64,000 nucleotides of DNA. It comes from Naegleria gruberi. Lineage: Eukaryota. Made by a program: the position numbers and the translations under genes. Below, piece by piece: positions 3,053 through 40,654 of this stretch. The notes below the pieces were generated by a model that was given only the letters and a program-made list of their open reading frames with translations, had not been told where the DNA came from and searched no databases. Each line of letters starts with the position of its first letter. Position 1 is the first letter of the stretch. The DNA is taken from the NCBI GenBank assembly GCA_000004985.1, contig GG738887.1; one strand, given 5' to 3'.

Positions 3053-3315
3053 TTCATCAATTTGATTTTTGAATTCTAATAAATTGATTTTAAGAAATTA
3101 AAATTATTAATTTGAATTATTTAGGAAAAGTACTTTTTATCAAGTCATCGATTTGTTGTTTTTCCTCTTTGAATCCATTGTTGTTTTCAGTTCCGATATT
3201 ACTTTCGGTTTGTTTCATTTTTTTTGAAGATATTAATTTGGTATTATTTCAACCTGTGTCTATGCTTGATAATATATATGGAATATCAGGAGAACACATT
3301 TATCTTGAACAAGAA

Positions 3316-3386: not shown

Positions 3387-3823
3387 TCCAAGAGATATCA
3401 ATTTTTTTAGCTTTTCTACAAAGAGTCAAGCTTTCACTTTTTTACCATATCAACTATACATGCAATACTACAATATACTTAAATTTCTCATCGTCATATT
3501 TCATATTGATAGAGATAATAACCACCGATCCGACCTCGCTGTAGAATCTCTGATGATTATAGAAAATAGTAGGCATATCATATTGCCTCGGTGGTTGCAT
3601 AATACTTGGCAACCAACTGATATGTTTAAACAACAGCAGTAAACTGCTTATTGTACATATATTTCGAACATGATGTCTCATAAGCATTACTCTTTGATTA
3701 ATAGATATTTGTAAATAACTGACGTTTTATGCAGCTACGTTTGATATTTTTCAACTAGGTTCTTGTGAGCTTGTGGATGAACATAACAATCCTAACAAGT
3801 TCATAAGAATCTCATTAAAAAAA

Positions 3824-4669
3824 ATGAAACAACTTCTACTCTGTCAGGACATCTTGTCATTAATTATAATGTTTGATGAGGATCCTTTCGAAATACTGAT
3901 GTCATTCCGATCTGTTTGCAAGACTTGGCACGAATGGACAAATTCACATCATTTATTATTGGATTGTATTATTTCAGTATTACATAAAGGATGGTCAATT
4001 AGAAATGATTCCACAAACGAAACTTTTCAAGTCAATTTATTTAAATTACCATCATATCAAGATGAATATCATCCTGATATTTTCACACATGCTCTCAAGT
4101 ATTATAAATTGGTAAAGAAACACATTGAACAATATACAGAACAATTGGAGCATCCAAATTCAAGTTGTGAATATGTTTATGCACCAACAAGAGTTGAAAA
4201 CAAATTGGCTTTGGAAATGTCAAGTATTCTTACACCATTTTTATTTCTGAAAAAGGCAAGCACTGAATTTGGAAGTTATGATTTTCGATCAAATTTAGCA
4301 ACTGTAGTGATTGCAAATGTTAAGGGAGAGGACAAGTTTGTGAGTTTAAAGATGTTAAATGACAGAGGTCAACCAGGACCATACTCGAATTATACTGTTT
4401 GTGAATTACTTGAATTCGAAACAGATTCTTCCAAGATTCAAAGTAATGACGAGTTGTTAAATGTTTTAATTAATCATTTGGGGACTACAAAATCCTGGAA
4501 TAGGAAAAGAGTTTTGGAGGTGATGGAATTTATTGGATTGGAAGAGGAATTCCTTTCGAATAATGATTGTGTTAATGATTTCATCTATGTGGTAATGTAT
4601 GAACTCATCTTTAAATCTATAGAAATATGGTATACAGAGCAATATCTTTTCAATTGTGGGGATATTTAA
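3824..4669 (+). CDS. Hypothetical protein with an N-terminal F-box-like motif
   Basis: The ORF-track ORF 3773..4669 begins with a non-ATG (GTG) codon and the first ATG is at 3824. The N-terminus MKQLLLCQDILSLIIMFDEDPFEILMSFRSVCKTWHEW matches the F-box consensus (L..EIL..I...L....L..VCK.W). Confidence 0.55.
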   Translation: MKQLLLCQDILSLIIMFDEDPFEILMSFRSVCKTWHEWTNSHHLLLDCIISVLHKGWSIRNDSTNETFQVNLFKLPSYQDEYHPDIFTHALKYYKLVKKHIEQYTEQLEHPNSSCEYVYAPTRVENKLALEMSSILTPFLFLKKASTEFGSYDFRSNLATVVIANVKGEDKFVSLKMLNDRGQPGPYSNYTVCELLEFETDSSKIQSNDELLNVLINHLGTTKSWNRKRVLEVMEFIGLEEEFLSNNDCVNDFIYVVMYELIFKSIEIWYTEQYLFNCGDI

Positions 4670-4672
4670 ATA

Positions 4673-4717
4673 TCAAGTCGGTGGTTAATTGAAAATTGTT
4701 AAATTAAGGAAATGAAT
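4673..4717 (+). promoter_or_regulatory. Conserved 5S rRNA upstream leader box (ggtggtt.attgaaa.ttgttaaattaaggaaatgaatgg)
   Basis: Nearly identical ~45 nt lie immediately 5' of the 5S copies at 4718 and 8056. An AT-rich ttaaattaagg sits at about -25 and could be a TATA-like element. Shorter matches (tgaatgg or ttgatgg) lie upstream of the other two copies. Confidence 0.35.
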
Positions 4718-4836
4718 GGCTACGGCCATATCACGATTCATGCACCTCATCCCGTCCGATTTGAGAAGTTAAGCATCGTCGAGCCACATCAGTACTGAGG
4801 TTGGAGACAACTTGGGAACCTGTGGTGCTGTAGTCC
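4718..4836 (+). rRNA. 5S rRNA gene, copy 1
   Basis: GGCTACGGCCATATCACG...CCCGTCCGAT...GAAGTTAAGC...AGTACT...GGTGCTGTAGTC. Helix I is closed by 5' GGCTAC and 3' GTAGTC. It is followed by a T5 run, the Pol III terminator. Confidence 0.85.
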
Positions 4837-4992
4837 TCTTTTTCCTTCCTTATGTTTATTAGAGTTTCATCTATTTTAGCCATCATTAAAACAATGAAAG
4901 TGGAAGAGGAGCTGCAATATACCATCATGAAGAGCTACATGCTCTTCCTCCATCTCAATAATTTGATATTAAGGCGAGAGTATTCAATAACT

Positions 4993-5375
4993 TTCTTGAA
5001 TCCATATTTATTTTTCACATTAAAGATACCACAATTTTATAATTGCACTTTTCACACATTCAAAGCCAATATCACAAACCTCACAAATGAAACTTGATAA
5101 AACCATTGACTGTACTTCTACAGGATCTTTTCTGTAGGAATACATAAACTCGACTTTTTTGAGTCAATCTGACCTTTGAGGTTAACCAAGATGAAGACTC
5201 TGTAGTCACATATCTTGAGCATGATATCGAACTGGAAACATGCTTCGTTGTAGGTTTCCTCGTTCATAGATGATTGCTGCATTCCTTACCAGCCATGGTT
5301 TGTGAATGGGGGATTTGTGAACATGCAGATTGGTACCTTAAACCTTTTATCAATTAATAGAAAATTATTACAACC
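4993..5375. repeat. Dispersed repeat, copy A (partner copy at 12001..12295 has its internal ~165-bp segment inverted)
   Basis: Shared ends: ttcttgaatcc...ccacaattttctaattgcacttttcacacattcaaag at the left and gatatcgaac...atgcagattggtacctta...caattaatagaaaat at the right. The middle segment is reverse-complemented between the two copies. Confidence 0.7.
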
Positions 5376-5595
5376 AACCAACCAAATGCCCCCAATAGCA
5401 CTAGTCATAACCATATATTGCAATGAATATCATTCATAAAAATTAAACATTTCTCAATCATCAATTTCACTCTTGGTCGAGCAGTGACTCGTTGCACGCA
5501 AATCATTTAATTTTTGAGATGGCATTTTGTTCTTAGAAACTTGAAACAACAGAATTTTGGAGAAAAAATGAGAGTGTCCAATCTTTGATTATTTT

Positions 5596-5670
5596 CTTGG
5601 TGGTTTTAAGAGATGAAACTTTGAAAATTGGTAATTAGCTAGAGTACTTATCATTCATCCTATGATGAAA
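5596..5670 (+). pseudogene. Degenerate 5S rRNA fragment, leader plus first ~35 nt of 5S
   Basis: cttggtggttttaagagatgaaactttgaaaattggtaattag|ctagagtacttatcattcatcctatgatg aligns with the 5S leader followed by ggctacggccatatcacgattcatgcacctcatcc. It then diverges, and no full 5S body or T-run follows. Confidence 0.35.
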
Positions 5671-5709
5671 AAAGTAAAACCTATATTCCAGATAGAGTCA
5701 AAAATTAAT

Positions 5710-5780
5710 CTCGAGTGCCGGGAATTGAACCCGGGTCGCCAGAGTGACAGTCTGGAATGCTACCACTATACCACACCCGA
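5710..5780 (-). tRNA. tRNA-Asp (anticodon GTC)
   Basis: The reverse complement is tcgggtg-tggtatagtggtagcatt-ccaga-ctGTCac-tctgg-cgac-ccggg-ttcaatt-cccgg-cactcga. The 7-bp acceptor stem has one GU pair. The T-loop is TTCAATT. Confidence 0.85.
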
Positions 5781-6319
5781 TTGCATTCAAGTAGAAATGA
5801 TTCCTTAATTCGCCTTAGTATATAGTCATTTCTGCCATTAATTTATTATTAGAAAATTGACTTCCATTTCGAAGTGAAGAGGCTTCTTAAAAAAAGAATT
5901 ATACCATAATGTTGTGAACCCACAAAACAATCTGAAGATAAGAGACATTCCAACCCATAACCGAATTTGAGGCATGTAGTGTAATTCTAACATCACGATC
6001 AGCTCATTACTCTATGAAGTTTTAATCTTTGCATCAAATCTGCTAAATTAACTTTTCAAATTTTAATGAAGAGGTCAGCAAATGTTTTTAAAGTTCCCAA
6101 AATGTTTTCAATGTTCATTTTCAAAATTTCTTATCTATTTTTAAATATAATGACGAAATTTTCATCATCATTACAAAAAGTATGATGTCAACAACTCCGA
6201 AATTCAATGATGAAGACACACGGTTTTCATTCATATAAAACCCATTGAACGATATTCTTGAAAAAAACAAGAATTTGCAAACAAGCAATTCAACTAACAA
6301 TTCTAATAACTCAAACAAA

Positions 6320-6868
6320 ATGGACTTTTTCAAAAAGATTGGTCAATTCTTCTCTGGATGGCTCAGAGGTTTATTCGAAAATAAGGAAGCCAAGATTCTA
6401 TTCCTTGGTTTGGATGCAGCTGGTAAAACTTCAGCTCTATATAAGATTCAATTAGATGAAAATGTTAGCACTATTCCCACCATTGGTTTCAATGCTGAAG
6501 TGTTACAATATAAGAAGGTAACTTTCAGAGTGTTTGATATTGGTGGCCAGGATAAGATTAGAAAGTTATGGAGACACTATTATCAATCGACAAATGCTAT
6601 CATTTTCATTGTCGATTCTAATGATACTGAGAGATTTAAAGAAGCTGCCGAAACCTTACGGGAAGTTATGCAGGATGATTTATTGAAAGATGCCAAGTTA
6701 TTGGTGTGGGCTAATAAGCAAGATTTGCCAAGAGCTGCCAATGTTAAAGATATGGTCAATACTTTGAAATTACACGAGATTAAGCAAGAATGGTACATCC
6801 AACCATGTAGTGCCCTGTCTGGCAATGGATTATTCGAAGGTTTGGATTGGTTATCCAGTAAATTGTAA
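6320..6868 (+). CDS. ARF-like small GTPase (Arl1-like)
   Basis: [88 protein letters not shown]...WANKQDL. The ORF-track ORF starts at a TTG at 6245, and the first ATG is at 6320. Confidence 0.85.
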
Positions 6869-6921
6869 ATAAACACTTTGATATCTCATATTTCAAACTT
6901 GTCAAATAGGATTTCATCATA

Positions 6922-7875
6922 TTAGCCTCCAACCAATCTAAACACCATGACTAATTTAGAATTACTGTTAATTTCTAATTCTTGCAAAGTTTTTTCATCA
7001 TCTTCCATTGACATCACTTTCGAATTGTGAATTATTCTAAATTCATTACCAATGTTCCACTCCTCAGCCACCCTCCAACGAATCATATTGAAAGTATTGT
7101 TAGGATCTGCAAAAAATCTCAATTCCTTTCCTGAGATTGATTTAATACGCAATTCTATAGAGTTGTCCAATGTGGAAAAGCTTGAAATTTCCTCATCCTT
7201 AAAAAGTACATTTCCAACAAACTGAAAGGCCTTTGGGGTTTGTTTCAGTGCAGCTAAATTAATTTCTCTATTATTCTTCAGTGAATATCCCACATATTCC
7301 AATAATATTCCACACTGGCTTACAATTTTCAACATGTATTCTCTATTATTTAACAAGTATTGATTTAAAACATATTTGATGGCTCTTGGATTACAATCAA
7401 GAGCAGCTCTACAAATTTCCTCATCCTGTCTAAAGTCCTCATCCATATCTTTTAATAGGACCCAATTATTCTTTACCTGAACTAATTCCTTGACAAAATT
7501 TCGATCTCTTCTCAATACCTTTCCAACATATTCACCACTCGCAAAAGCATCATTCGAAATTGCCTTCAAAACTAATTCTCTATCATTCCTCCAATTTTCA
7601 TGAAGAATTTTCAATGCCTTTCCTTTATGTTGCTTGATCACAGCAAGAGCCACCTCTCTATCCAAACTAAAATCGAATGGTTTCAGACTCGGAATGAATG
7701 GAACGTTGCTATGTTTTATCTGGTTTAAAACCATCAATTTTGCATAGTGGTGCTTTAGTACTTGTTGAGATGTCTTCATCATTTCATTCCGAAGTATTTG
7801 TTGTAAATTAGTCATGAATTTATAATTTTCCTGATGGAAATCAGTGAGTGTAATTTTTACTGTTTCGTTCTGCAT
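6922..7875 (-). CDS. Protein with DUF4116-like repeats and a C-terminal ubiquitin-like domain
   Basis: Repeated motifs RELVLKAISNDAFA, EEICRAALDCNPRAIKYV, REYMLKIVSQCGILLEYVG and REINLAALKQTPKAFQFVG. The C-terminus ...LQELEINSNSKLVMVFRLVGG ends like ubiquitin. Confidence 0.6.
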   Translation of the reverse strand: MQNETVKITLTDFHQENYKFMTNLQQILRNEMMKTSQQVLKHHYAKLMVLNQIKHSNVPFIPSLKPFDFSLDREVALAVIKQHKGKALKILHENWRNDRELVLKAISNDAFASGEYVGKVLRRDRNFVKELVQVKNNWVLLKDMDEDFRQDEEICRAALDCNPRAIKYVLNQYLLNNREYMLKIVSQCGILLEYVGYSLKNNREINLAALKQTPKAFQFVGNVLFKDEEISSFSTLDNSIELRIKSISGKELRFFADPNNTFNMIRWRVAEEWNIGNEFRIIHNSKVMSMEDDEKTLQELEINSNSKLVMVFRLVGG

Positions 7876-8009
7876 ATGATGATCGTGTTTTATGACTTGA
7901 TTTTTTTTGTTTTGTAATTGATTTAAACTTCAAATTCGAAATACAAAACGATCGTAACAGGTAAATTGAAAATTCACAAAATTGGTGTACAATGTGGGAT
8001 TTCGTTTTA

Positions 8010-8055
8010 AAGGAAGTTGGTGGTTGATTGAAACTTGTTAAATTAAGGAAATGAA
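8010..8055 (+). promoter_or_regulatory. Conserved 5S upstream leader box (second instance)
   Basis: ggaagttggtggttgattgaaacttgttaaattaaggaaatgaatgg lies directly 5' of 5S copy 2. Confidence 0.35.
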
Positions 8056-8174
8056 TGGCTACGGCCATATCACGATTCATGCACCTCATCCCGTCCGATT
8101 TGAGAAGTTAAGCATCGTCGAGCCACATCAGTACTGAGGTTGGAGACAACTTGGGAACCTGTGGTGCTGTAGTC
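8056..8174 (+). rRNA. 5S rRNA gene, copy 2
   Basis: Identical to copy 1 across the body, with a T5 terminator. Confidence 0.85.
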
Positions 8175-8332
8175 TTTTTCCTTTTACCACATTGAACGTT
8201 AACCTTTCTATTTAGAGACATGTTCATTACAACAATATTCAAATTGATTAATGATGCAAACAACTTACAATTCAATAAATATTTATTAAATGTTGAATAT
8301 TCCCAATGCTAAAGCAATGTGAATAGACACAT

Positions 8333-9808
8333 CTACACAACATTTTCCATGTCAATATTTACTTCATCCATTTGCATTAAATCGAAACTTGCCTTCTCCA
8401 TTTCTTCTTGTGAATCTTCATAGACCTGAACTTCATCCGATTGAAAACCATAAATCTCAACAATTTGCTCATTGAACCATTGTTCATTGAAGAGGACTTT
8501 TGTTGGATAGCCATTCTCCTCAATTACCTTAATCATTTGATGGAAGAGAAACTCCAATTCGTTGTAGTATTGAGCAAAGTCAAGTTCACTAATGTATTCA
8601 TCTTCAAGAATTGACATGCACTTGTCAAACTTTTCACTAATTGACATGTATAATGAATCATTGTCAAAGATGTCATGATAATTTTCTATAGCTTGATGAA
8701 TGGTATGGAGCATGAGTTGTTTGTTACGTTTCAATCCTTCCAAAATGTCCAATGATTCATTAATGCGTTTGAATTTTGAAAAATTATTAGAAATGATGCA
8801 TTTGATGAATTTCTTCTTAATCTTTCTGATTTGTTCGGTAATGAGAGAGTTGTCCAATACTTTGAAATGGCTTTCGGTGCTTTCAATTCTTTTGAAGAGC
8901 ACATCTTCATAGCAATCAACTTTGATAGATCTGTTACTGGAGAGAAGGGTTCCAAAATTATCCTCTTTTTGAATGGTTTCGAATAGGATTTTTGTATTTG
9001 ATGGAAAGAAAAAGGATAAAGCAAGCTTGAGTGCACCATATTTGGATGGTTGTGTGGAGATGGAATGATTAACAATGATTCTCTTCAATGAACACACAAT
9101 TTCTGGTTCCTTCAAATCTTCCTTGGACAATGATTGCAAGAATGTTTCTGGAATAATCAATTCTTCACAATTAGGATAACACTTCCCCAATAAATCATTC
9201 AAGAAGGATCTCAATTCATTACATGAACCGATAGTATTACGAAGGATCAATTTCCTGACCTTTTCACTTGAATGATTCAATATGTTTTCTTGACTTGGAT
9301 GTGAAACACACAGAGTTGGAATTGTGATGGATCTGTGAGGAAACTTGTGACTTTCATAATATTCAAGATTGGGAGCAATGGTGGAAATATCATAATTCTT
9401 TGGAGGTCTAATAAATAATAATCGAGTCAACTTGCTACCTAAATGTGAAATAAGTGACAAATCACTATTGTTGTAAATTATATTTGAGAATGATAATTCC
9501 TCAATATTGGAAGAAATCAAATCAAGATTATTGACAAGTGCAAATATTGGGTTATCAACTCCCTTAGGTTTCCCTTCATTTGTTAAGTTTCTAATGAATG
9601 ACCATTCAAGGTCAAATGTCAACTTTTTCAAATAAGGACTAATTTTAAAAATTCTTTTTGAGAATCGAGATTCTGGGTAGATGAGCTGAAAGTTTTTGAA
9701 CTTTAAATGTTGGATCTTACTGGTACTTGCGTTCATCAAGTCAACCAATTGTCTCTTTGTAATTGAAATTCCATTTAAGGTATTGTAGTTTTCCAGAAAC
9801 CATGACAT
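8333..9808 (-). CDS. Hypothetical protein (~490 aa)
   Basis: Long minus-strand ORF. The ORF-track start at 9820 is a GTG and the first ATG is at 9808 (MSWFLENYN...). No confident domain assignment; it may be LRR-like. Confidence 0.5.
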   Translation of the reverse strand: MSWFLENYNTLNGISITKRQLVDLMNASTSKIQHLKFKNFQLIYPESRFSKRIFKISPYLKKLTFDLEWSFIRNLTNEGKPKGVDNPIFALVNNLDLISSNIEELSFSNIIYNNSDLSLISHLGSKLTRLLFIRPPKNYDISTIAPNLEYYESHKFPHRSITIPTLCVSHPSQENILNHSSEKVRKLILRNTIGSCNELRSFLNDLLGKCYPNCEELIIPETFLQSLSKEDLKEPEIVCSLKRIIVNHSISTQPSKYGALKLALSFFFPSNTKILFETIQKEDNFGTLLSSNRSIKVDCYEDVLFKRIESTESHFKVLDNSLITEQIRKIKKKFIKCIISNNFSKFKRINESLDILEGLKRNKQLMLHTIHQAIENYHDIFDNDSLYMSISEKFDKCMSILEDEYISELDFAQYYNELEFLFHQMIKVIEENGYPTKVLFNEQWFNEQIVEIYGFQSDEVQVYEDSQEEMEKASFDLMQMDEVNIDMENVV

Positions 9809-10938
9809 AAATTTTTTCACCTCAACACCAATCTTTTTTCCATCTCATCCATGTTGATCGATTAAAATCCATCTATTCAATCTGTTTTTTGATCAATCTA
9901 TCAAACAATCGATCATGATTAATCAACAATTTCAATCATATTGAATAAAGACTTGATGTTATTTGAAAAGGCTCAACCTTCAGCTAATTATCAAAAGATG
10001 TTGTTTGATTTCTTATGATGTTTCAAAAAAAAGAACTTAAAACACAAAAAGTTGGTTTTCTAAGTGCTTAAAATCATGTTAGAAGCCAATCTCCTCCGAT
10101 GTGGCATTTGAATATAAATTTCTTATAATCCTTTCTGAGCTCAGTGACAGAAGGTTGCTCCCAACCTTTTTCCACGAATATGTCAAGTGCTCACTCTTGA
10201 TTTTAATTTGGGATGTGGATATTGCAATATTACATAAGAGTGTTGGTTCTTGATTAAATGATTGCTTACACAAGTTTGGACGTTGTTGCTCCTGAACATG
10301 TGGTTTTGTTCAAAGAGCATTTTATCAAGTTTGCTTTCATTCTCACCCTTTGTCATTAATTAAGGCACTCAATACTGGAAACCTTTTTTCAAGTGTTGTA
10401 TTTTATCATGTCAAGTACTTGAGAAACTCATTTGATGTAGTAGAAGATCCACATTGTAAAGAAATTAAAACATTCAAACTTAATGAATCGTTCCGATGCC
10501 ATCCCAGCTTGATATGGAATTCAGTAATACCAATAAGGTGATTTTCAAGGCACTCTGTACTGACATCTAACCAAGGGTTGATTTAAAATGAAAAAAGGAG
10601 CAATTTGGAGAAGCCATTTCGAAGCTTAGTGAAATAAGTAAGGGAGAATGAAATCTGTGACTCTAAAAAAATAATTGAAAAACCAAAAAACAACTCTCAA
10701 AAAGTCAAAAAGGCAAGAAAAAAATCAAACCTGAACTGGAAGAACAAAAGAAATCATCAAAATCAAAGTCTCAAGCTCAGTTCAATGAGGATTTCGAGAT
10801 ATCTGATGAAAACATTGATAGATCGATCGATTGATCGATCAATTAATTGATAAAATTCTATGTTTCATCCATTCAATCGATCATTTTCCATCTCGATCAA
10901 TCATCGATGGGTAAAAAAAATCCATCGAAAAATTTATG

Positions 10939-11463
10939 TCATGGTTTCTCGAAAACTACAATAACTGTACTAAACTTTTCAATTGTGGACATGAATTTAA
11001 GTGAATATTCTGAAAATCTCACAACAAGTTCAGTGTCATGAATAAATGGTTCATTTTCCAACCAATCATGTAAAAATTCTAATTGACTATTATTGTTACA
11101 ACACCAAACTCTTCTGTGCATGAGAATTTGCAAGCAAGCTTCTCTATTTACCAAATCAGGAAAATTAATCAAATACTTCATCAATTCAGCAAGGAATTCC
11201 TCATCACTATAGTTTGACATGATTTCCAGCACAATATCTGCACATCCTAATGTACTTTCCAATAGCTGTTTCATTTTCAATTTGTCCATTGCTTGTTTCA
11301 TTTGTTGTTGAATTCCCTTCTTGTTGCCACGTGCGATGGTTGCAGCTACATTCAGATCGGTTGCAAATCTTGCCCATCCGTCTGGATCCATCAGCATGGC
11401 AGAGGGTGGAATGGCAATTCTTGGTTTCCTTGATGACTTTTTTGATATTTTGGCAGGCAGCAT
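10939..11463 (-). CDS. Hypothetical protein, 174 aa
   Basis: ORF with an ATG start. No recognisable motif. Confidence 0.4.
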   Translation of the reverse strand: MLPAKISKKSSRKPRIAIPPSAMLMDPDGWARFATDLNVAATIARGNKKGIQQQMKQAMDKLKMKQLLESTLGCADIVLEIMSNYSDEEFLAELMKYLINFPDLVNREACLQILMHRRVWCCNNNSQLEFLHDWLENEPFIHDTELVVRFSEYSLKFMSTIEKFSTVIVVFEKP

Positions 11464-12000
11464 GTTTCTAATAATGTTTCTAATAATTGTTGTTGGTTTC
11501 TTTTTCTTTTAACTGAAGGCAAATAGTTGTGTTTGCGAATTTAAAGTTGTTTTAATCACGTTGTGAATTCCGATCTGGGCAAAAATGGACTAAATCATGT
11601 TTTGTGTGTGGAAACGAAAGATTTTGTTTGCTTTGACAAGGTTCAATGTTTTCTTGTGACACCTGGAAGTGGCACTCTGAAGTTTACGTAAATTGATTGA
11701 TTTTGTTTGAAACAGTGGTTATGATGATGCAACTTCATGTTCTTTTTCCATAAACACCAATTAGAAAACTTTTGAGAAAATAGGAATTGAAAAAAGGGAA
11801 GTTTGCCTCCAACTTACTTTGTCAAGACAAAAATTTACAACAGTTCTGGATTATTTGCTCAAATACAAGTGGATATAAATACCGAGTTGAAGGAAATTCT
11901 TAAAAACCATGGTATTACGATCTTGAAGAAGAGCCATCATGGAACTATTGAAAATGCTCTTTCCACCTCAATGATTTAATGAAAATAACATTCAATTATT

Positions 12001-12295
12001 TTCTTGAATCCTATTTATATATTTTTCACACATTAAATGTACCACAATTTTCTAATTGCACTTTTCACACATTCAAAGATATTATGCTCAAGATATGTGA
12101 CTACAGAGTCTTCATCTTGGTTAACCTCAAAGGTCAGATTGACTCAAAAAAGTCGAGTTTATGTATTCCTACAGAAAAGATCCTGTAGAAGTACAGTCAA
12201 TGGTTTTATCAAGTTTCATTTGTGAGGTTAGAGAAATTGGCTTTGATATCGAACATGCAGATTGGTACCTTATACTTTTTTCAATTAATAGAAAA
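12001..12295. repeat. Dispersed repeat, copy B (internal segment inverted relative to copy A, plus an ~88-bp deletion)
   Basis: See copy A. The segment 12083..12240 is the reverse complement of 5053..5219. Confidence 0.7.
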
Positions 12296-13175
12296 TAAAA
12301 TTAACTAGAGAAACGATCAAACCTTTCCTTATACCAATTCACAATTCTGTAGATTGTGTATTAATCAGGTTTCACAATTCTAATGATCATCAAGCACTAT
12401 AACAAAATTCATTGCACTATATTGAATTACATTAATACTTGCCAGGTAAGGTTGTTGGTAAATCAAGTTCAATGCAATACAATATTTGAAGACTCAAATT
12501 CGAAATTTGAAGGTTTATTGATCAACCACAAGTTTCTCTTTCTAAATAGATAAAATTCAAAGGTGATAAATATATGGTCACGTTGCAAGTTTTTCTAAAC
12601 AATAACTTACTGAACCAACAATCAATAGATTAGTTGCCTTCACTGTTCATACAGTCAAAGACTGTAGCGGGATAGTCGCCATATTCCTGGCAGGCTTCCC
12701 GTCCAAAATTAACAATTGAAATAATTTCTCAGACAATTTATGAATTGGAAAGAAATTGAAATCACTAGAGGTTTATTGTAAACTGCACACACCAAAAATA
12801 TGAAAAATTTTTGTTGACTGAAAAAAGTTCAACGCTGCGCAAGATGTTAAAAGACAGAAATAGTGGTATACGAAATTGATTATCTGCGCTCAACCGGCCA
12901 ACATGGATGAGATCCAGGGTTTATGAGGGGATTTTCAAGTGTCAAAGCGACCCGTGGGTGTTTGTCTGTTTCAATTTACTACCTTTATTACTGAGAGGAA
13001 AGAATGAGGAGTAATACAGCAAAATTCAAAGTTTCGAAACAATTGCCGTATTCAATACTTTGTTTGTGGTAAGGTATCATTTTCAATCCATTATGAATTT
13101 GTCCAACATTGTTAATTGCCCATTCGGGTTAAAGACAGATTGGCTGTTTATCATTAGACTTTTAAGGTAATTGAT

Positions 13176-13293
13176 GGCTACGGCCATATCACGATGAATA
13201 CACCTCATCCCGTCCGATTTGAGAAGTTAAGCATCGTCGAGCCACATCAGTACTGAGGTTGGAGACAACTTGGGAACCTGTGGTGCTGTAGTC
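13176..13293 (+). rRNA. 5S rRNA gene, copy 3 (variant gatgaatacacc)
   Basis: Full-length 5S with a T5 terminator. It differs from copies 1 and 2 at gattcatgcacc versus gatgaatacacc. Confidence 0.8.
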
Positions 13294-13490
13294 TTTTTCA
13301 TTCTTCTATTTTATTAAGCGTTTCATAATTATTACTATTTCAATTCCAAATGTTTTATTTTGAAAGTATTATTGGGTCTATATTTTTTTTGTGGAAACCA
13401 TAAAACTAAACCTTAGTATCTACAATACTGAATAGTAAATATTTGTTCCTTGTTCAATCCTTCTCATATTGAGGTAAACAGACAAAAAAA

Positions 13491-14588: not shown

Positions 14589-15854
14589 ATGCATCAATAC
14601 AACAAACAAAAAAACCGAATGAAACGATCCTTTGATGATTGTGCTTCGGAGGTACCACCAACATCACAACCATCACAGCATTATGATTCTGATGGAAGGT
14701 TGATGATGATGACTTCATCTCTACCCAATCATAATCACAATAACAACAATAATAATAATAGTAATAGTAATTTTAATAGTAGTGCATTGATGGATAATGA
14801 TCATCATACAACATTGATAGAAACTACTCCGATGAGTAACAATGACAATTATATGATTGATAATAATAATAACAATATGAAGAAAATTAAGAAGAATTCA
14901 TCACTGTCCTATTTTCATAATTTTAATGGTCATCATAATAGTCAGTATCAAACAACATCAACATTGATAACTATGAATGGTTGTTCGGGAATGAAAACAA
15001 GCCAGTCAGAGTTTGAATTGATTGGATGCATTGGAAGTTATGGTTCTCAGAATGGTCAATTCAAGAATCCATCTGATGTGGCTATTGATTTCAAAAATCA
15101 ATTAATATTTGTTGTGGATACAGATAATAGACGTATTCAGGTTTTTGATGAGTCAACTCTGACATTCAAGTACATGTTTACGACACCATTCAAACCAAAT
15201 GCAGTGACAGTTCATTGGGATCACACTTTAATTATTAGTTTCACTCGAGATTCATTGATTTGTAAATATGATTTTAATGGAAATGAGATATGGAGATGGG
15301 GAGGAGTTACAACAAAGAATGTAATGGATTCTCCAACAGGTGTTGTGGTTGACTATGAGGGAAATATCTATGTTTGTGATTGGTTTAAACATAGAATTGT
15401 AGTTTTTTCTCCAGGTGGTGAATTACTGAAATCGATAGGATCTATGGGAAAGGAATATGGTCAATTCTCATTCCCAAGAGATATTGACATTGACAGTGCT
15501 GGGAATATCATTATTTCTGACAGTGGAAATAATCGCATACAGATACTGAAATCTAATGGAGAATTTATAAGTAGTTTTGGAAGTATTGGAAATGATAAGG
15601 GAGAATTTCAAGCACCAAACTCTGTTTTTGTGGACAAGTCAACTGGTGATATATTTCTTACAGAGTGGGATTCACATAGAATTTCAAAATTTCATCCTAG
15701 CAATCCCTTTTCTGGTTCTACTTGCATTGGTAGCTTTGGAAACCATGAAAATTCACTGAAATATCCTTCTGGAATTGCATTCTGCTACGGGTCATCTCGT
15801 TTGTTTATTGTTGATACTGGAAATAATAGAATCAAGGTTTACAGAGTTACATGA
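14589..15854 (+). CDS. NHL-repeat (six-bladed beta-propeller) protein with an Asn-rich N-terminus
   Basis: Repeats such as GSQNGQFKNPSDVAIDFKNQLIFVVDTDNRRIQVF, GKEYGQFSFPRDIDIDSAGNIIISDSGNNRIQIL and GNDKGEFQAPNSVFVDKSTGDIFLTEWDSHRISKF fit the NHL consensus. Confidence 0.75.
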   Translation: MHQYNKQKNRMKRSFDDCASEVPPTSQPSQHYDSDGRLMMMTSSLPNHNHNNNNNNNSNSNFNSSALMDNDHHTTLIETTPMSNNDNYMIDNNNNNMKKIKKNSSLSYFHNFNGHHNSQYQTTSTLITMNGCSGMKTSQSEFELIGCIGSYGSQNGQFKNPSDVAIDFKNQLIFVVDTDNRRIQVFDESTLTFKYMFTTPFKPNAVTVHWDHTLIISFTRDSLICKYDFNGNEIWRWGGVTTKNVMDSPTGVVVDYEGNIYVCDWFKHRIVVFSPGGELLKSIGSMGKEYGQFSFPRDIDIDSAGNIIISDSGNNRIQILKSNGEFISSFGSIGNDKGEFQAPNSVFVDKSTGDIFLTEWDSHRISKFHPSNPFSGSTCIGSFGNHENSLKYPSGIAFCYGSSRLFIVDTGNNRIKVYRVT

Positions 15855-27773: not shown

Positions 27774-28973
27774 ATGAAACGATCTCATCACGAAAAAACG
27801 AATTCGGAAGATGATGATCAACCGGAAGAAGTCAACAACAGTAAAAAACAAGCTATTGATCAAAACTCGGATTCGTATTATAGTATTGGTATGAAATATT
27901 TGGATGGAGTCGAAGTTGAAAAAGATGAAGTCAAAGCCTTTGAATGGTTTATGAAAGGAGCTGAACAAGGATGTATTGAATCACAGAATAGAGTTGGTTT
28001 GCTTTATCATAAAGGAATGGGAGTTCAAAAAGATTATTCTAAATCATTTGAATGGTATTCGAAAGCTGCAGAAAAGGGGGATGCCAAAGCACAGTTCAAT
28101 ATTGGAGCATTGTATAAGAATGGCCAAGGTGTGAAAAAGAATTATTCCAAAGCCGAGGAGTGGTTTCTAAAGGCTGCTGAAAAGGGAAATGAATCTGCAC
28201 ATCGAAATCTACCACCACTATATTACAAAATGAAAGATTATTCAAAATCATTTGAATGGTATTTAAAACTTGCTGAAAAAGGAGATGCCAAAGCTCAATA
28301 CAGTATTGGAAAAGCATACAAAAAAGGTGAAGGAATTGAGAAAGATTATTCAAAGGCCTTTGAATGGTTTTTAAAATCAGCTGAAATTGGAAATGCAGAT
28401 GCACAATTTAATGTTGGAAATGCCTACAAGAAAGGTGAAGGAATTGAAAAAGATATTGTTAAATCGTATGAATGGTTTTTGAAGGCAGCTGAAAATGGTA
28501 ATAGACTAGCACAATGCTGTACTGCAAAACGGTATTTTATTGGAGAAGGAGTAGAAAAAGATAGTTCCAAAGCATTTGAATGGTTTTTGAAAGCTGCAGA
28601 AAATGGTGAAACAGAAGCACAATTTACTGTTGGATCAATGTTTTACAATGGTGAAGGAATCGAAAAAGATATTTCTAAGGCATTCGAATGGTATGTAAAA
28701 GCTGCTGAAAAGGGCCAAATAGAGGCACAATTTTATGTCGGATTAGCATATCATGATGGTGATGGAACAGACCAAGATTATTCGAAATCATTTGAATGGT
28801 TTTTAAAAGCTGCCGAAAGTGGCTATACAGAGGCACAATATTTTGTTGGATTGGCATATGAGCTTGGTACAGGAGTTGAGAAAGATAGTTCTAAAGCATT
28901 TGAATGGTATTTAAAAGCAGCTACAAACGGAAATGAAAAGGCGCAAAATAATATCAATTCATTTTCATTTTAA
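27774..28973 (+). CDS. Sel1-like repeat (SLR/HCP-like) protein
   Basis: At least 9 tandem repeats of A(F/E)EW(F/Y)(L/M)KAAE(K/N)G...AQ...G..Y..G.GV.KD..K. Confidence 0.85.
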   Translation: MKRSHHEKTNSEDDDQPEEVNNSKKQAIDQNSDSYYSIGMKYLDGVEVEKDEVKAFEWFMKGAEQGCIESQNRVGLLYHKGMGVQKDYSKSFEWYSKAAEKGDAKAQFNIGALYKNGQGVKKNYSKAEEWFLKAAEKGNESAHRNLPPLYYKMKDYSKSFEWYLKLAEKGDAKAQYSIGKAYKKGEGIEKDYSKAFEWFLKSAEIGNADAQFNVGNAYKKGEGIEKDIVKSYEWFLKAAENGNRLAQCCTAKRYFIGEGVEKDSSKAFEWFLKAAENGETEAQFTVGSMFYNGEGIEKDISKAFEWYVKAAEKGQIEAQFYVGLAYHDGDGTDQDYSKSFEWFLKAAESGYTEAQYFVGLAYELGTGVEKDSSKAFEWYLKAATNGNEKAQNNINSFSF

Positions 28974-29258: not shown

Positions 29259-32200
29259 ATGTGTCGATTTGACAAGTGGCATTTAGTAATTCTTCTTCTT
29301 CTTGTACTTGTATTTTCAGTCCACTGCTTTCAACCAAGCTATAATCTCTCCAAAGTAGCAGGTGGAGGATCAATAATTGGTGATGGCCTTGTCAGTAGTC
29401 AAGTATTACTGTCATCACCTTCAGGGATAATTGTTTCAAACTCTGAAATAATATTCTGTGATACTAACAATCACAGAATACGTAAAATAGACACCAATGG
29501 TGTTGTTTCGACAATTGCAGGTACCGGCAATGCAGGATATTCAGGTTAGTTTCGTGTGATTTCGCTTGGATTCTCAAACGCAAATTTATTGATCAAATTA
29601 GGAGATGGAGCTAATGCATTATTTGCACAGCTAAACTCACCACAAGGAATTGGATTACTTTCGGGTGGTGCAATTATTGTTTCAGATACATTAAATCACC
29701 GTATTCGAAAGATTGAAAATGGGATCATTTCAACAATTGCAGGAACTGGATCACCAGGTTATACAGGTAAGTATTTAGTTTGCACTTTCTTATTGATCTT
29801 TAATCATTCGTCCTAATCCCAAACATTATTCGAAACTAGCCAGTGGAACTGCCACCAGTGCACTTATCAACACACCACTTGGATTGGCAGTTTACAATAA
29901 TGAAGTTTACTTTGCCGATAGTCTAAATCATGTTATTCGAAAGATCTCCTCAAGTGGTTCCATCAGCAATGAACAAGGAGTTGGCGCCACTTCTGGATCT
30001 CAAACTTTACCATTACAGATGAACACACCAACCGGAGTTGTATTTCAATCGGGAACAATGTACATGGCAGATTCAAAGAATTTGAGAGTTTGTTATCCTG
30101 GATTTTTGGGAATTATTAATTGCATTTCAACAAGTAGTGAACCGATTGGTTTGGGAGTTTATAGTGGAGTTGTGTATGCTGCCTTATTAGGGAATGTCAT
30201 TGTGTCCTTGCAGAGTGGAACTCCAATTGTGGCAGGAACTGGAACGAGTGGATTTTCAGGAGATGGAGGAGTGGCAACATCAGCTCTATTGAATGGGCCT
30301 TCTGCATTGACTTTTGATTCGAGTGGAAATATGCTCATTTCAGATTCTTCCAATAATAGAATTAGAAAAGTTACAAATGGAATCATTTCAACATTGGCTG
30401 GAACCAGTAATAGAAACTTTGGAAATGGAGCGGTGGGAACATTGGTTTCATTATCTTCACCAAATAGTGTTTATTATGCTGGAAATGATGATTCAACAGG
30501 TGGTATTTTGATTGCTGACATGAATAATCATGTTTTGAGAAGATTGAAAGATGGAAGAATTTATAATGTGATTGGAAATGTTGGTATCTCAGGAAGCAAT
30601 AGTGGAAATGGAGTGACTGTCAATGCTGCAACTTTAAATTCACCTCCATTTGTAATGAAGAGATTTGGTGATTTGATTTACTTTTTGGACAGTGGTGGGT
30701 GTGCATTGAGGAGAATTGAATCGAGTGGTGTTTTAAAATTGGTGGTTGGAAGTTGTAATTCTGGAAATCAAGATTATTTCCTTTCCAAATCTTTTGACAT
30801 TTCAAGTGATGGAATTATTTATATTGCCGATTATTACAATCATAGAATTGCCAAGTTTGTGATTGGTGGCACGAGTTTGACCACACTTGCTGGAGGTTCT
30901 CTGAAAGGATTTGCAGGTATGTTCATTTAGAATATCATTTCGAATATTTGTGTGAAAATTATAGATGGAGTTGGATCGAATGCCAATTTAAACTATCCTG
31001 ACAGTATTTCCATTGGCTTAAATAACATGCTCTACTTTTCAGATCGTGACAATCATGCCATCAGATCTGTTTCAACAATTAATGCTTTGGTAACAACTAT
31101 TTCAGGAAGTGGAATTGCAGGTTATACGGGAGATGAAGGTCCAGCTATTTATGCGAAGCTCAATTTACCTGGATCGATTGAAGTGGCTCTAAATGGTGAT
31201 ATCATTTTCATGGACAAGGGAAATCAAAGAATTAGAAAGATTACAAAATATGGAAATATTTTTACTTTATATGGAAATGGTTCGACTAGTGTTTTTAATA
31301 ATGCGAATGGGTTGACACTTGGTGGAAGTGGTGAAATTTACATTGCAGACAGTGGTAATAACCTTATCAAAATGTTATCTTCTGCAAAATGCACAAATGG
31401 AACTTTTTACAATTCTTCATCATTCGAATGTCAATGTCCATCTGGTTACTATGGAGAAACCTGTTTAGAATATGATTGTGCAGGAGTGAACAGCAATTCA
31501 TCTCTGGTTTGCTCTGGAAGAGGTACATGTTTCAAGCCAAACACATGCAACTGCTCTGCACCTTACTTTGGTGGATATTGTGAGCAGTACTATTGTAATG
31601 GAGTGAATGTTTTAAATTCGAGTGTTTGTTCCTCGAATGGTCAATGTACAGCTCCAGATAATTGCACTTGTTCATTTGGAACTTTTGGTTTGAATTGTGA
31701 AAATGCGTATTGTCAAGGAATTGTTTCATGGAACGAAACTGTTTGCAATTCGAGAGGTAAATGCATTGGCTATAATAAGTGCACATGTAATGATGGTTTT
31801 TATGGCAATAATTGTGAATTTTATAATTGTTATGGCATTAAGAACACAGACAGCTCAGTGTGTTCTGGAAATGGAATTTGTTCCAAAATTGACAATTGCA
31901 CTTGTTTGGATGGATATTACGGAAATAATTGTTCTGATTTCAATTGTGTTGGAGAGCTATTCACTTCTGGAAAGAATTTGTGCCAAAATAATGGATCATG
32001 CACTGGACCAGGTGATTGTACATGTTTACCTGAATGGGGTGGAAGTATTTGTCAATATTTCAAGTGTTTCAACAAGACACATGTTGATCCAAAGGTTTGC
32101 TCTGCACATGGTCAATGTATGTCCTTTAATAATTGTTCATGTGATTCGAGATGGTTTGGCAAAGATTGTAGTGTGACCACTTGTTTTGCGAAATTATCAA

Positions 32201-35200
32201 ACGATTCGAATGTAGTTTGTTCCTCACATGGTCAATGTTTAAATCCAGATCAGTGCACTTGCAACAATGGATATAGTGGAAGTGAGTGTGAATATAGAGT
32301 GTGCTATGGTTTGAATCATACAGATGCAAATGTTTGTTCTTCACATGGTCAATGTACAGCACCAAATACTTGTAAATGTGAAAATGGTTTCGTTGGAGAT
32401 AATTGTGAATATCATCAAGTTTATTTGGATATTGCAAATGCATTGATTTATTCAAATTATGATTCTCTTCTCAATATTTCAAGAAATGCCAGTGTTAATG
32501 ATCAACAAGTATTGAATAGTGAATGTTCAGATTTATTGGAAAGTTCAGAATTGGCCAAATTGGGTGAAAGTGATTTGATTTCATGTTATTGGACCAATAA
32601 TTATTTTAAAATCAAATTGGGATATAATCACATGATTCAACATTTATCAACATTGAAATTGAATTATTTCAATATTTCACTGCAAGTCAATTCAAATTCA
32701 TCATTAACTTTACTCAACCAGAGAACATTCGCTTCTTCAATGGATGTTTTATTGTTATCCATTCCATCCACACAAGATTTCATTATCAAATCTAACAGTG
32801 ATGATTATTATCATACATTCAAGAAAATATCAAAGAGTTGGACATGTGAAAATTGTCCTCAATCACTTGTCAATTATTTAACAAATTATGAGAATAAGAG
32901 TATGATTTTAATACCAAGTACATTATTGAATAGTATTCCATTGGATTCTTCCTATTCAAAAATTCTATCACTCAAGTATTCGTCAATGAATTCCATTCAA
33001 AAATTATTGACATCAAGTGACAAGACAAGAATTGAATCGAGTAAGAATTTACCACCCTATTTCACATGGCATGGTGAGAATGTGAAGGATGCACAATTTA
33101 AATGTGTTGGTCATAATTGTATTGTGGAAAGTTCATTGAATTCAATGAATAGTTCAATTTCATTCACATTCTCTGGATTTTTCAGTTTATTGAATTCACA
33201 ATTTTCACAAAAACAAATGTTCAGATTGGTGAATGTTTATAATAATGAATTGGTTGATAGTGAATATTCATCCAATGCACAAATTGTTGGATTTCAATTG
33301 AAAACTTATGTTTCCACTTCACTTTCTTATTATTTCTCCTACACAACATTTGATAGATTGGATCATGTTTTAACCAATGTTAATAGAACTCTATCTCTTT
33401 CTGATGATTCTACATTTGCAATTTCAATTTTCAATCCAGATCCATTCATTTCAACCTTCACCTTATCAGATTATTTCACATACAATTATGAATTTTATCA
33501 AGTCAACTCAATTTCTAATAGCAATTTAAAGTTAATAACAAGTAGTAATCAAAAATCATTGAATATAGATGCTACCCAATTGAATTTATCAGAGGGAACA
33601 TATCTAGTCAACTTGACACTCACAGTTTCCAAATCTTATGTCACAATTCCATATTATTTTTTCGGATATATTCAATTGCATTCTCAATCAAATGTTCCAA
33701 AATTAACAATTGATCAATTACCTGCTATTTATGCTTCTAATAAGGATTTACAATTGAAAGTCTTGATTCAATCATCAAGTTCTATTTTAAACTATAAATG
33801 GAAATTAAAAGATGGTATTGTAAAGGAAAGAGAATTAATTGAACAATTATTACAAAATTCACAATTGACTCAACTCACATCTAACGTGTATAAGAGTGAA
33901 ATTACAATTAATAGTCAATATTTATTGGAAGGTGAATTTATTTCATTTGATTTTTCAGTTTCGAATATGAATGGCATTTCAAATGTTTCACTTTCAACAA
34001 GAATTGACGAATCTCCAAGATTTTCATGTGAATATTTCAACCTAAAGAATGAATTTACAAATTATGCATTTGAAAGTTTACTTTCCATTTCATGTTTCAA
34101 TTTACCTGAAGAACCAATTTCAAGTTTCAATATTGAATTTCATTCACAGAAAAATGGAAAGAGAATGAATGTCATTTCGAATACTTTGAAAAAGAATGTC
34201 ATTACAAGAATACCTTTCTATTCATTTGATGAACAGCAGGTGAATCTTGTTGTGAAATTAGTGAATAGATATGGTTCAGTTTCACAAATTTCAAGAAATA
34301 TTTCAGTTTTACCTCCATTGACCATTTACAATTCAGGAAATTCAATTGCATCAAGATTTAATTATCTGAAACAATCTTATTATAATTTGAAATTGAATGA
34401 ACCATTGAGAATTGATACTGCTCATTCAATTTATTCCTTAATGAGTATTCTCATTCAAAACGAAACCATTTCGAATATTACAAGACAATTAGTCAATGAA
34501 ATATCAAGCAATGAATTGTCAACATTTAATTCTCTATTGAAAGATATGATTATTCAATTGAAGAGCATTCAATCATTGAGTTACAAAGTTGATGAAAAGT
34601 TTATTCAACTTTCACTTCCAATCATTTCACAAATTTATTCGATTTTGGATAATTTATCATTGGATGACAGTTGGGTTTCAGATATTTCTACATGGCTTGA
34701 TTGGATTTATTCTGGAATGTCAAGTGCAAAACAATATTATTCTGAAACATTGTTAGCAACTATACTTTCGAATGAACATTATGAAGAATTGAAATTAATT
34801 CAAAATATACTTTCTAATAGATATTCGAATCGATTGGACAAACAAGAATTGATTTCAAAATATAGAGCTCAATATTTAATGTTGACCGGTTTATCAGATG
34901 ATTCATCCTATCAAGTTTATCCAGTTGAAGTTGCTTCTCAATTGAATGGCAAGTCAATCATGACAACTATCAATCAAGAAATTCAAATCCAAGCCACACT
35001 TCCATCAGATTTAACCAGTCAATTGTCAAGTATTTCAGATAATTCACAATTATTCTTTTCATCTTCTCTAATTAGCAATGACAAGACATTGAATAATATT
35101 TTATCAAATATACCTGTTTTGGACTTGTCAATTTATTCATCAGATGGATCATTGACAAGTGTGAATAATTTATTGAATCCAATTCAAGTGAAATTTAATA

Positions 35201-38048: not shown

Positions 38049-38292
38049 AAGTAAAGTTTTACTGAATCTCTTTTATCTTCATCATTGTACTATTGATTGA
38101 GAAATGATTCGTTTGGATTTGAATTTTGGAATTGTCTTCACTCTCCTTTGGTTGAGTAGTTAATGATACTTTTCCAATAATCCACAAATCACCATGTGAT
38201 GAATAAATCGGATTAATTTCAAATGATTTTAATTTTCAAAAAATTCCATTGAAAAAAGAAAAACATAAATGTGGAATGAAAAAAAACGTGGT

Positions 38293-38415: not shown

Positions 38416-39195
38416 AATAAACAATGCTTTACTTTCTCGACTACACCAAGAATAATATCTTTTTATTAGCCAATTTGGTTCAAAAATATTATAAATATCA
38501 AGTGCCATTAAAACGAAGTACAATATTGAACAACTGTAAACAGTAGTCTGAATAACGTAGTTTATTGTTGATTACTTCAAAAAAACAAAACCACCTCTAC
38601 AATGAAGTACCTTAGTCGGAAACAATTACACAATTGGTGTAACAACAACATCTGAGAGAAGAACAAAAATTGTCCTCCAGCAATTTCTACGTACTTTGGG
38701 CGACTACCTACAACCCAAAACACTTGGACAATTCTGTATGGTTACTAAGCAAGGAAGGCAATAAGGTAAACTTGATTACATTTTCGAGCCTCTGAAGCAG
38801 AATTAGGTTTTTATTGGTGTAAATTTGTTGCAAAATATGCAGGATTTCCTACAATTATTATCTGGATCATATATCTGATTTATTTCTTTGAATGTATCCC
38901 ACATTCATTCGAACCAGAAAAGTTAATTGTGAAAAAACCACTATAGATACCTAATCTTTCTGATGAAGAACCTCACTTTCCCAAAGTACTAGAACAGGAA
39001 TTACTTCCAAACGAACTTTGACTAACTATTACTACAATATGTTTCTACTTTAGCTTCTACAGTAATATGGAATATGTTAATGATGCCCCAAACGCTTCAA
39101 CTCCATTATCAAAGAATCATGATTTACGATAAATCTGATAGGAAAATAGTGGAGATAATTACCTAACTTTGTTTTAGTAATTTAAAGTTTGTAAT

Positions 39196-40143: not shown

Positions 40144-40654
40144 TGGTGACTGTTTCAGCTGTTCTGGCTTGTTTGAGGAGAGAGGCTAGTTTAGTACGGA
40201 TTAGTTCTGTTTCGTTTAATAATTCTGTTAAATATTTAACAAGGTTAACACGTGTGGTTGCTGAAGGGATATCGAATACTGCTGCAACACCTCCGAATGT
40301 TATTGCTGGTTCAGCAACAGTACCAAAAGAAAACATTTTTTTACATGTGATTCTTATAGGCTAATTGATAATTTCCAGTTTCTTACGGGAGACAAGACTT
40401 TAGAACATAATGAATAACAATAAAAGTCTTTAAATTAAGGTTACATTCATTTCATGTGTTCAATATAGTTCCTTGCAAGGATGATGAGTGGATTGACATC
40501 AAAACGTCTGAATTGGAAATTCGTCGTTGAAGGTCCAAATCCAATTCAATTGTTCAATTATCATATGAAATTCTCCATCACAATTGGCTCCATAATAATT
40601 CGAATCACATTTACAATATTTTGCTGAACGCCCCAAATAGCAAACAGATAAAAA

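Follow-up and report, generated by a model that had tools for sequence, protein, structure and literature searches.

Dispersed 5S rRNA genes in a 64-kb window of Naegleria gruberi, with probable traces of local DNA-level copying

In most eukaryotes the genes for 5S ribosomal RNA (rRNA) stand in tandem arrays that undergo concerted evolution. Dispersed 5S families are also found in Neurospora crassa and Schizosaccharomyces pombe, and in both of these species upstream TATA elements contribute to the transcription that RNA polymerase III (Pol III) carries out. Yarrowia lipolytica has 108 dispersed 5S copies, 48 of which are fused 3′ of a transfer RNA (tRNA) gene and transcribed as dicistrons; Acker et al. 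stated that the mechanism of 5S proliferation was unknown (Acker et al. 2008, PMC2566860). Mobile elements derived from 5S sequences have been described as well, namely the 5S-type short interspersed elements (5S-SINEs: SINE3, 5S-Sauria) and the Cassandra and Ajax terminal-repeat retrotransposons in miniature (TRIMs; PMC10946416). For Naegleria gruberi itself, Feng et al. reported 279 5S genes that are unlinked to the ribosomal DNA (rDNA) units and that have an internal control region (ICR) and an upstream TATA box; TFIIIA was not found (Feng et al. 2012, PLoS One 7:e36878, PMC3369914). The genes, their copy number, the ICR and the upstream TATA box have thus been in print since 2012. Here we analyze four 5S genes in a 64,000-nt stretch of the N. 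gruberi genome (contig GG738887.1 of assembly GCA_000004985.1), which we call the window. We consider it likely that they are dispersed type 1 Pol III genes among which local DNA-level duplication or gene conversion has occurred, with no jumping element involved.

A search with the Rfam covariance model RF00001 (gathering score 38 bits) recovered four full-length 5S genes, each covering model positions 1-120 at 100-106 bits (100.3-106), and a lenient nhmmer scan of the window found no further 5S copies or fragments. The positions given in the initial annotation, which had been made from the sequence alone, were correct within 1 nt, and its description of the genes as non-tandem and set between unrelated protein-coding genes is borne out by the spacings and the intervening open reading frames (ORFs). 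Successive 5S genes lie 3339, 5119, and ~27474 nt apart, and between them stand unrelated genes, which encode an Arf GTPase, a DUF4116-ubiquitin protein, and a DUF547 protein, along with several lineage-specific ORFs. The spacers that hold the 5S genes are short. Copy 1 begins 48 nt past the stop codon of ORF 3773-4669, and copy 2 occupies a 457-nt gap between two minus-strand ORFs, the ATG of 6922-7875 being 181 nt away from it and the stop of 8333-9820 157 nt. Head-to-tail repeats of gene plus spacer, by which a tandem 5S rDNA array is recognized, are absent at the 5S genes of the window. Tandem arrays and the Naegleria copies have the same gene, ICR, and T-run, and gene conversion is invoked in both, whereas the Naegleria genes have neither a head-to-tail repeat nor a common spacer, and neighbors stand kilobases apart with protein genes between them. 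Within the gene, copies 1 and 2 differ solely at position 119, and copies 3 and 4 differ at one position. Copy 4 is probably of the majority sequence type (similarity class.75 in the published set, 161 of the 279 copies).

The four genes can be placed in the published set. Table S1 of Feng et al. (PMC3369914) lists 5S rows on scaffold_43 at 164721, 168060, 173179, and 200653, and the window spacings match these four rows exactly, with copy 1 corresponding to scaffold_43:164721, copy 4 to scaffold_43:200653, and the window to about scaffold_43:160,001-224,000. Reparsing the coordinates of that table gave 279 copies over 117 scaffolds. The N. gruberi 5S family has no tandem arrays, since neighboring copies stand at least 462 nt and at the median 33.9 kb apart. 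Table 1 of the same paper scores N. gruberi 5S as "tandem: Y", which its own Table S1 coordinates contradict. The family resembles those of Yarrowia, Neurospora, and S. pombe in comprising some hundred or more single 5S genes, unlinked to rDNA, with a conserved gene and divergent flanks. Unlike Yarrowia, no Naegleria copy in the window lies within 1.3 kb downstream of a tRNA gene: the nearest same-strand tRNA upstream of copy 1 is 1332 nt away, and there is none near copies 2-4. A tRNA-5S dicistron of the Yarrowia type was excluded on the ground that no 5S copy stands directly 3′ of a tRNA gene. As Naegleria is a heterolobosean and distant from the fungi, its 5S dispersal probably took place independently of theirs.

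The evidence for copying at the DNA level lies in the flanks. Their significance was judged by comparing local alignment scores with those of 8154 real windows of the same sequence; this comparison revealed a mosaic for which global per-segment identities were too insensitive. Copies 1 and 2 share a tract of 166 nt (4675-4840 and 8014-8179) at 97% identity, 43 nt of which lie upstream of the gene. Over the upstream 60 nt the pair reaches a local score of 38 versus a maximum of 18 among the 8154 windows, and the 38-nt leader core, GGTGGTTAATTGAAAATTGTTAAATTAAGGAAATGAAT, occurs only at copies 1 and 2 (0 and 2 mismatches) and in 0 of 100 shuffles. Downstream the partner changes: the trailers of copies 1 and 3 align, with four indels, at a score of 19, which equals the null maximum (fraction at or above the observed score ~1e-4). 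Homology upstream of copies 2 and 3 is weak (score 16, p = 0.0017, reached by 1 of 500 shuffles), copies 1 and 2 match marginally in their outer flanks (p 0.01-0.05), and the flanks of copy 4 show homology to none of copies 1-3 (p 0.1-0.56). Copy 1 is thus like copy 2 over -43 to +123 and like copy 3 in its trailer, and copy 2 is like copy 3 farther upstream. The initial annotation had described a leader of ~45 nt common to copies 1 and 2 and a trailer of ~35 nt common to copies 1 and 3, and both stand, the first as 43 nt within the 166-nt tract and the second as ~40 nt (p ~1e-4). Two further proposals need revision. The duplicated unit, put at ~200 bp, comes down to a high-identity unit of ~166 nt surrounded by older and faint homology, and a leader and trailer carried by the family as a whole are not supported: the 43-nt leader is present only in copies 1 and 2, and both copy 4 and L008, a Naegleria-type copy on a metagenome contig, are without it. 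As far as these two independent copies allow a test, the extended leader is not conserved beyond the pair. In a dispersed family the flanks are unrelated save for short promoter and terminator signals, which is what we find at copy 4 and L008; copies 1-3 are the exception.

Because copies 1-3, all within 8.5 kb, share sequence beyond the transcribed 5S, DNA-level copying or recombination is the simplest account of them, and the argument against retroposition of the RNA that was made from the sequence at the outset is supported for this trio. Ectopic recombination fits because copy 1 is a mosaic, like copy 2 in its 5′ part and like copy 3 in its 3′ part. For the event between copies 1 and 2, ectopic gene conversion appears more likely than a small duplication, and a single small duplication (~170 bp) is a possible origin of their identity. 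The best reading of the 43-nt leader is that it marks a recent DNA-level event and not a functional feature of the family. Dispersal mainly by retroposed Pol III 5S transcripts, with the leader of copies 1 and 2 explained as a read-in transcript or a later conversion, strikes us as unlikely. Such a route would be helped by the internal promoter, which keeps copies active, and it has precedents elsewhere in the 5S-SINEs, Cassandra, and Ajax (PMC10946416). The homology of copy 4, of L008, and (faint traces aside) of copy 3 also runs from about +1 to the T-run, just as far as a Pol III transcript would extend, but old DNA duplicates under purifying selection should show the same pattern. The sequence that copies 1-3 share outside the transcript lies on both sides of the gene, neither target-site duplications (TSDs) nor A-rich tails were found, and about nine upstream positions stand at a constant distance from the gene, which random insertion sites would not give unless they were strongly filtered.

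A second alternative is that the 5S gene and leader form a small non-autonomous mobile DNA cassette, either a captured fragment or similar to a miniature inverted-repeat transposable element (MITE), that inserts between genes. The 166-nt unit is compact, has fairly sharp ends, and sits in otherwise dissimilar DNA at two sites 3.3 kb apart; the excess of neighbors at 1-5 kb described below resembles local hopping; a class of copies with two mismatches is over-represented (27 versus 5 expected) on >20 scaffolds; and a U3 small nucleolar RNA (snoRNA) unit has been copied locally too. Even so, we hold such a cassette to be very unlikely. No copy has TSDs above chance (longest direct flank repeats 5-6 nt versus a null mean of 6.4) or terminal inverted repeats (TIRs) above chance (longest 8 nt, P(≥8) = 0.15), poly(A) or A-rich tails and long bracketing repeats were found at none of the four genes, and the 64 kb contain no solo leader or other leader copy. 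The flanks of copy 4 and L008 are unrelated right up to the promoter positions. Moreover, it is copy 3 and not copy 2 that copy 1 resembles in its trailer, which recombination fits better than one defined element. Of the two routes that the initial annotation had offered for DNA-level dispersal, local copying by ectopic recombination is supported by the flank homologies and the mosaic, and the small mobile unit, in view of the missing TSD, TIR, tail, and solo leader, is not.

The known 5S-derived elements offer a further comparison. Like the Naegleria copies, 5S-SINEs, Cassandra, and Ajax are dispersed and contain the 5S internal promoter. They combine a 5S-like promoter part with another module, either a tail related to long interspersed elements or paired long terminal repeats (LTRs), and have TSDs, whereas the Naegleria copies are complete, sound genes with no added module, LTR pair, or TSD. 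LTR pairing of the Cassandra type was ruled out in that no paired long repeats surround the 5S genes, and a 5S-derived SINE or TRIM in that full 119-nt genes with a T-run are followed by unique DNA without TSDs.

The U3 unit, which consists of U3 and its upstream region, is a second small-RNA unit of which a copy lies ~7 kb away, within the region of the 5S trio. U3-B (11905-12297) is a rearranged pseudogene copy of the U3-A snoRNA (5106-5334; compared region 4925-5365). Part of the U3 upstream region (5004-5072) recurs in direct orientation at 12017-12085, and 5060-5228, made up of 46 nt of upstream sequence and the initial 123 nt of U3, recurs inverted at 12078-12246 with 98% identity. Short inverted repeats, ATATC/GATAT, stand at the borders of this inverted segment. 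From the 3′ part of U3, ~90 nt have been deleted between two GAAC repeats, and the tail, 5319-5348, matches 12251-12280. A joint segmental duplication of 5S and U3 was ruled out: the U3 homology begins ~90 nt past copy 1, and next to U3-B there is no remnant of a 5S gene.

The gene sequences of copies 1 and 2 add a second shared character. Both have T21 C22, and copies 3 and 4 and L008 have G21 A22. An RNAalifold consensus of 13 copies gave a three-way-junction fold that is backed by compensatory changes, including changes relative to a distant 5S type described below, with double-sided changes at pairs 3-116, 9-110, 15-64, 16-62, 17-61, 18-60, and 20-58 as well as at 68-107 to 71-104 and 85-92. 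Of the 13 copies, 11, among them those of the distant type, retain the G21-C57 pair with which helix II ends. In copies 1 and 2 it is replaced by a U21·C57 mismatch that makes the fold ~3 kcal/mol less stable and lowers the Rfam score by 5-6 bits, so the variant looks mildly deleterious rather than adaptive. Because this slightly unfavorable variant and the leader are both shared, the pair points to common descent or conversion and not to selection on the leader. The opposite view takes the leader as a selected, variant-specific promoter and the T21C22 copies as a subfamily that is regulated separately, for instance between the amoeba and flagellate stages, in analogy with the oocyte and somatic 5S genes of Xenopus. 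A distinctive variant and a distinctive leader do coincide in copies 1 and 2, the pair is much more strongly conserved in its upstream flank than in its downstream flank, and the two-mismatch class is over-represented genome-wide. However, the variant breaks a base pair that is conserved even in the distant 5S type, at the energetic cost given above, the leader is known from copies 1 and 2 alone among variant copies, and the asymmetry of the flanks is explained equally well by a conversion tract. We give this view very little credence.

Table 1. Coordinates of the 5S genes and of associated features in the window
Feature	Position in window	Strand	Remarks
5S copy 1	4718-4836	+	RF00001 100.4 bits; T21 C22; C119, then CTC ahead of T-run
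5S copy 2	8057-8175	+	RF00001 100.3 bits; T21 C22 variant as in copy 1
5S copy 3	13176-13294	+	RF00001 106 bits; G21 A22, A25
5S copy 4	40654-40772	-	RF00001 105.4 bits; G21 A22
Copy-1 leader	4675-4717	+	-43 to -1; 5′ part of copy 1-2 tract; begins 6 nt past stop of ORF 3773-4669
Copy-2 leader	8014-8056	+	Counterpart of 4675-4717
Copy-1 trailer	4840-4878	+	Homologous to copy-3 trailer
Copy-3 trailer	13295-13334	+	Counterpart of 4840-4878
Copy-2 upstream segment	8001-8046	+	Faint homology to region upstream of copy 3
Copy-3 upstream segment	13123-13170	+	Counterpart of 8001-8046
Copy-1 putative TATA-like element, TTGAAAAT	4689-4696	+	-29 to -22; invariant in-register columns
Copy-2 putative TATA-like element	8028-8035	+	Same offsets
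Copy-3 putative TATA-like element	13147-13154	+	Same offsets
Copy-4 putative TATA-like element	40794-40801	-	Same offsets
Copy-1 proximal conserved positions	4704-4717	+	T-14, A-7, T-5, A-2, T-1; same offsets in all copies
Copy-1 putative Pol III terminator T5	4839-4843	+	Read from sequence
Copy-2 putative Pol III terminator T5	8175-8179	+	Read from sequence
Copy-3 putative Pol III terminator T5	13294-13298	+	Read from sequence
Copy-4 putative Pol III terminator T5	40650-40654	-	Read from sequence

What the family as a whole shares upstream is a short, position-specific, promoter-like signal, which agrees with the report of a TATA box by Feng et al. (PMC3369914). Every pair of copies shows elevated in-register identity at -1 to -10 and -21 to -30. 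Nine upstream columns are invariant in four copies, namely T-29, T-28, A-26, and T-22 together with the five proximal positions listed in Table 1, versus 0.9 expected, and 0 of 20,000 random sets reached nine. With strictly independent triples the count is 11 invariant columns versus 2.9 expected (P ~1e-4). T-29, T-28, A-26, and T-22 are invariant in all five Naegleria-type copies, that is, in L008 too. Inside the gene, box A matches its published pattern exactly at +50 to +64 (4767-4781 in copy 1) and box C matches with 2 mismatches at +80 to +97 (4797-4814 in copy 1), each at its canonical place; the pattern for the intermediate element is too loose to inform. Downstream, the whole family has only the T-run in common. 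Pol III generally terminates at T-runs, and by this general rule those of the 5S genes would act as terminators. We envision that each gene is expressed through its ICR, with box A and the box-C-like element at these positions, that the TATA-like element at -29 to -22, a putative site for TBP/TFIIIB, would place TFIIIB and the start site together with the fixed proximal positions, and that transcription would end at the run of four to five T directly past the gene. The three tRNA genes of the window also have TATA-like boxes (tatatat, tatata, and gatattatt) ~36-44 nt upstream of their mature 5′ ends, in upstream regions at 3271-3315 (Gly-GCC, 3316, plus strand), 5781-5830 (Asp-GUC, 5780, minus strand), and 38416-38465 (intron-containing tRNA, 38415, minus strand), which suggests that an upstream TATA element is the rule among the Pol III genes of this organism.

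Copies outside the N. gruberi assembly were sought by scanning metagenomes, a collection of bacterial and archaeal genomes, and a viral collection with a pattern for the 5S core. The bacterial/archaeal and viral collections gave no matches. In the metagenomes 14 contigs matched, L008 being the sole one of Naegleria type. The 5S of L008 equals copy 3 at 117 of 119 positions, and a neighboring hydrolase gene places its source organism in the Naegleria/Willaertia clade; the contig is without the 43-nt leader, and its flanks show homology to no window copy. A second 5S type, GGGTACGGTC..., ~77% identical to that of Naegleria, is found on contigs L004-L016 (VFQM/VFQO). These copies, from a gene-dense eukaryote, have unrelated flanks between long intron-less ORFs, and a TTTTACT trailer is frequent among them; T-26/A-25 is present in 7 of 9 copies. 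Their compensatory changes in helix II (pairs 17-61, 18-60, and 19-59) differ among copies, and because of this we read the set as another dispersed family, whose copies appear from their sequences to evolve independently with the fold kept. The best protein matches on these contigs are ~40% identical and include Acrasis, and the second type served as an outgroup only.

Known relatives of N. gruberi offered fewer points of comparison. The DUS protein of the window equals an N. gruberi protein at 100% identity and compares at 75% with N. fowleri, 72% with N. lovaniensis, and 63% with Willaertia magna, and the corresponding DUS-ortholog loci in these three species have no 5S gene and no synteny with the window. 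Across ~126 kb of N. fowleri, N. lovaniensis, Willaertia, and one further relative we found no 5S gene, which is uninformative with 0.86 expected at the density seen in N. gruberi. Orthologs of the L008 hydrolase in four relatives (Willaertia and N. lovaniensis among them; ±10 kb) have no adjacent 5S gene, and the upstream neighbor gene differs. These loci lend at most weak support to a turnover of 5S positions, because sites with a different upstream neighbor are not strictly comparable.

Returning to the published set, we find that close neighbors are in excess: 32 of 162 neighbor gaps are <5 kb versus 5.4 under random placement, about a six-fold excess (Table S1 of PMC3369914). Variants can be followed across the set through the similarity values published in that table, which are crude labels. 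Copies with at least 2 extra mismatches adjoin one another in 4 pairs at <5 kb versus 0.64 expected (P = 0.002) and in 6 pairs at <12 kb versus 0.94; without the copy 1-2 pair the counts are 3 and 5 against unchanged expectations, the permutation having been run on the set that includes the pair. The class with exactly two mismatches has 27 members, versus ~5 predicted by independent mutation, on >20 scaffolds, and therefore a dispersed subfamily that carries a common double substitution is suggested. The genes are those of Feng et al., and their account describes neither the local clustering nor the flanks that copies 1-3 share nor the variant subfamily. A bolder reading would have a T21C22 subfamily of perhaps 27-40 copies bear the 43-nt leader at many unlinked sites, having spread as a ~170-bp cassette of promoter, gene, and terminator that lacks a transposase, for example as small Pol III gene fragments captured at double-strand breaks. 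We regard this as a long shot.

We return to local duplication or conversion of dispersed genes as the preferred account. An older local DNA-level duplication would have given rise to copies 1-3, the flanks of which have since decayed to faint homology, and a later, recent event between copies 1 and 2, 3.3 kb apart, would have left either an ectopic conversion tract from -43 to +123 or a small re-duplication. In the family at large, short-range DNA-level copying or conversion, flank decay, and purifying selection on the gene may together account for spread and maintenance in a birth-and-death manner. Short-range copying or conversion is a likely way for the 5S family to spread and persist because neighbors 1-5 kb apart are in excess and tend to share the variant type. 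Several points weigh against this account. The choice between duplication followed by conversion and a single ~170-bp duplication hinges on the marginal homology of the outer flanks of copies 1 and 2 (p 0.01-0.05). Just five Naegleria-type copies were compared, the four of the window and L008, and copies 1-3 are interrelated; the test of promoter positions accordingly draws on three or four effectively independent sequences. The promoter roles, the terminator roles, and the activity of the U21·C57 variant are all putative. The "tandem: Y" label of Feng et al. conflicts with our parse of their table. Among close neighbors there is no enrichment of strictly identical labels (12 of 32 versus an expected fraction of 0.364), and the grouping of copies with at least 2 mismatches, which builds on a crude similarity value, was picked after copies 1 and 2 had been seen.

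Several other features of the window deserve mention. Its further RNA genes according to Rfam are the U3 snoRNA at 5106-5334, two intron-less tRNAs, and one intron-containing tRNA, the last of which was overlooked by ARAGORN. This set of RNA genes marks the window as eukaryotic. Between the 5S loci, big repeat-domain proteins are encoded at 14589-15854, 27774-28973, and 29884-36231, with domains assigned by eye from the translations. They include a Sel1-like repeat protein, seen in the DNA as a periodicity of 108 nt at 27921-28947, and NHL-repeat proteins. An ORF of 1759 aa combines, again by eye, NHL-like repeats, many EGF-like cysteine repeats, a transmembrane segment, and a C-terminal protein kinase domain. 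Two repeat structures lie around copy 4. A pair of 51-nt inverted repeats (40880-40930 and 41415-41465; 82% complementary, 484 nt apart) starts 108 nt upstream of the gene and looks MITE-like or like a foldback element; the other 5S loci are without it. A 40-nt direct repeat (38092-38131 and 42802-42841; 95% identical, 4.7 kb apart) flanks a block that holds the intron-containing tRNA, an ORF, copy 4, and another ORF. A repeat-rich zone at 47860-49451 contains two exact repeats, one of 102 nt (48397/49350) and one of 40 nt (47860/48505), and a tandem pair of 66 nt (48134/48230), and a ~70-nt inverted relative of these repeats lies at 12877-12947, 230 nt upstream of copy 3. Apart from a chance-level match to mir-87, the repeats of this zone have no Rfam match, and it may be an unclassified dispersed repeat.

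The window alone reveals no new mechanism. What goes beyond the literature is, in the first place, that the published description of these genes as tandem is contradicted by its own coordinates, which instead describe a dispersed family with a six-fold excess of neighbors at 1-5 kb. In the second place, one local trio keeps traces of how copies originate, namely by DNA-level copying and with a conversion-like tract that includes 43 nt of flank. Should the cassette route prove true after all, it might apply to the spread of small-RNA genes in Naegleria generally, since the copied U3 also brought its upstream region along. The route by which Pol III genes reach new sites was expressly left open in the work on Yarrowia (PMC2566860), and the 279 mapped copies of N. 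gruberi are a convenient data set with which to approach it.

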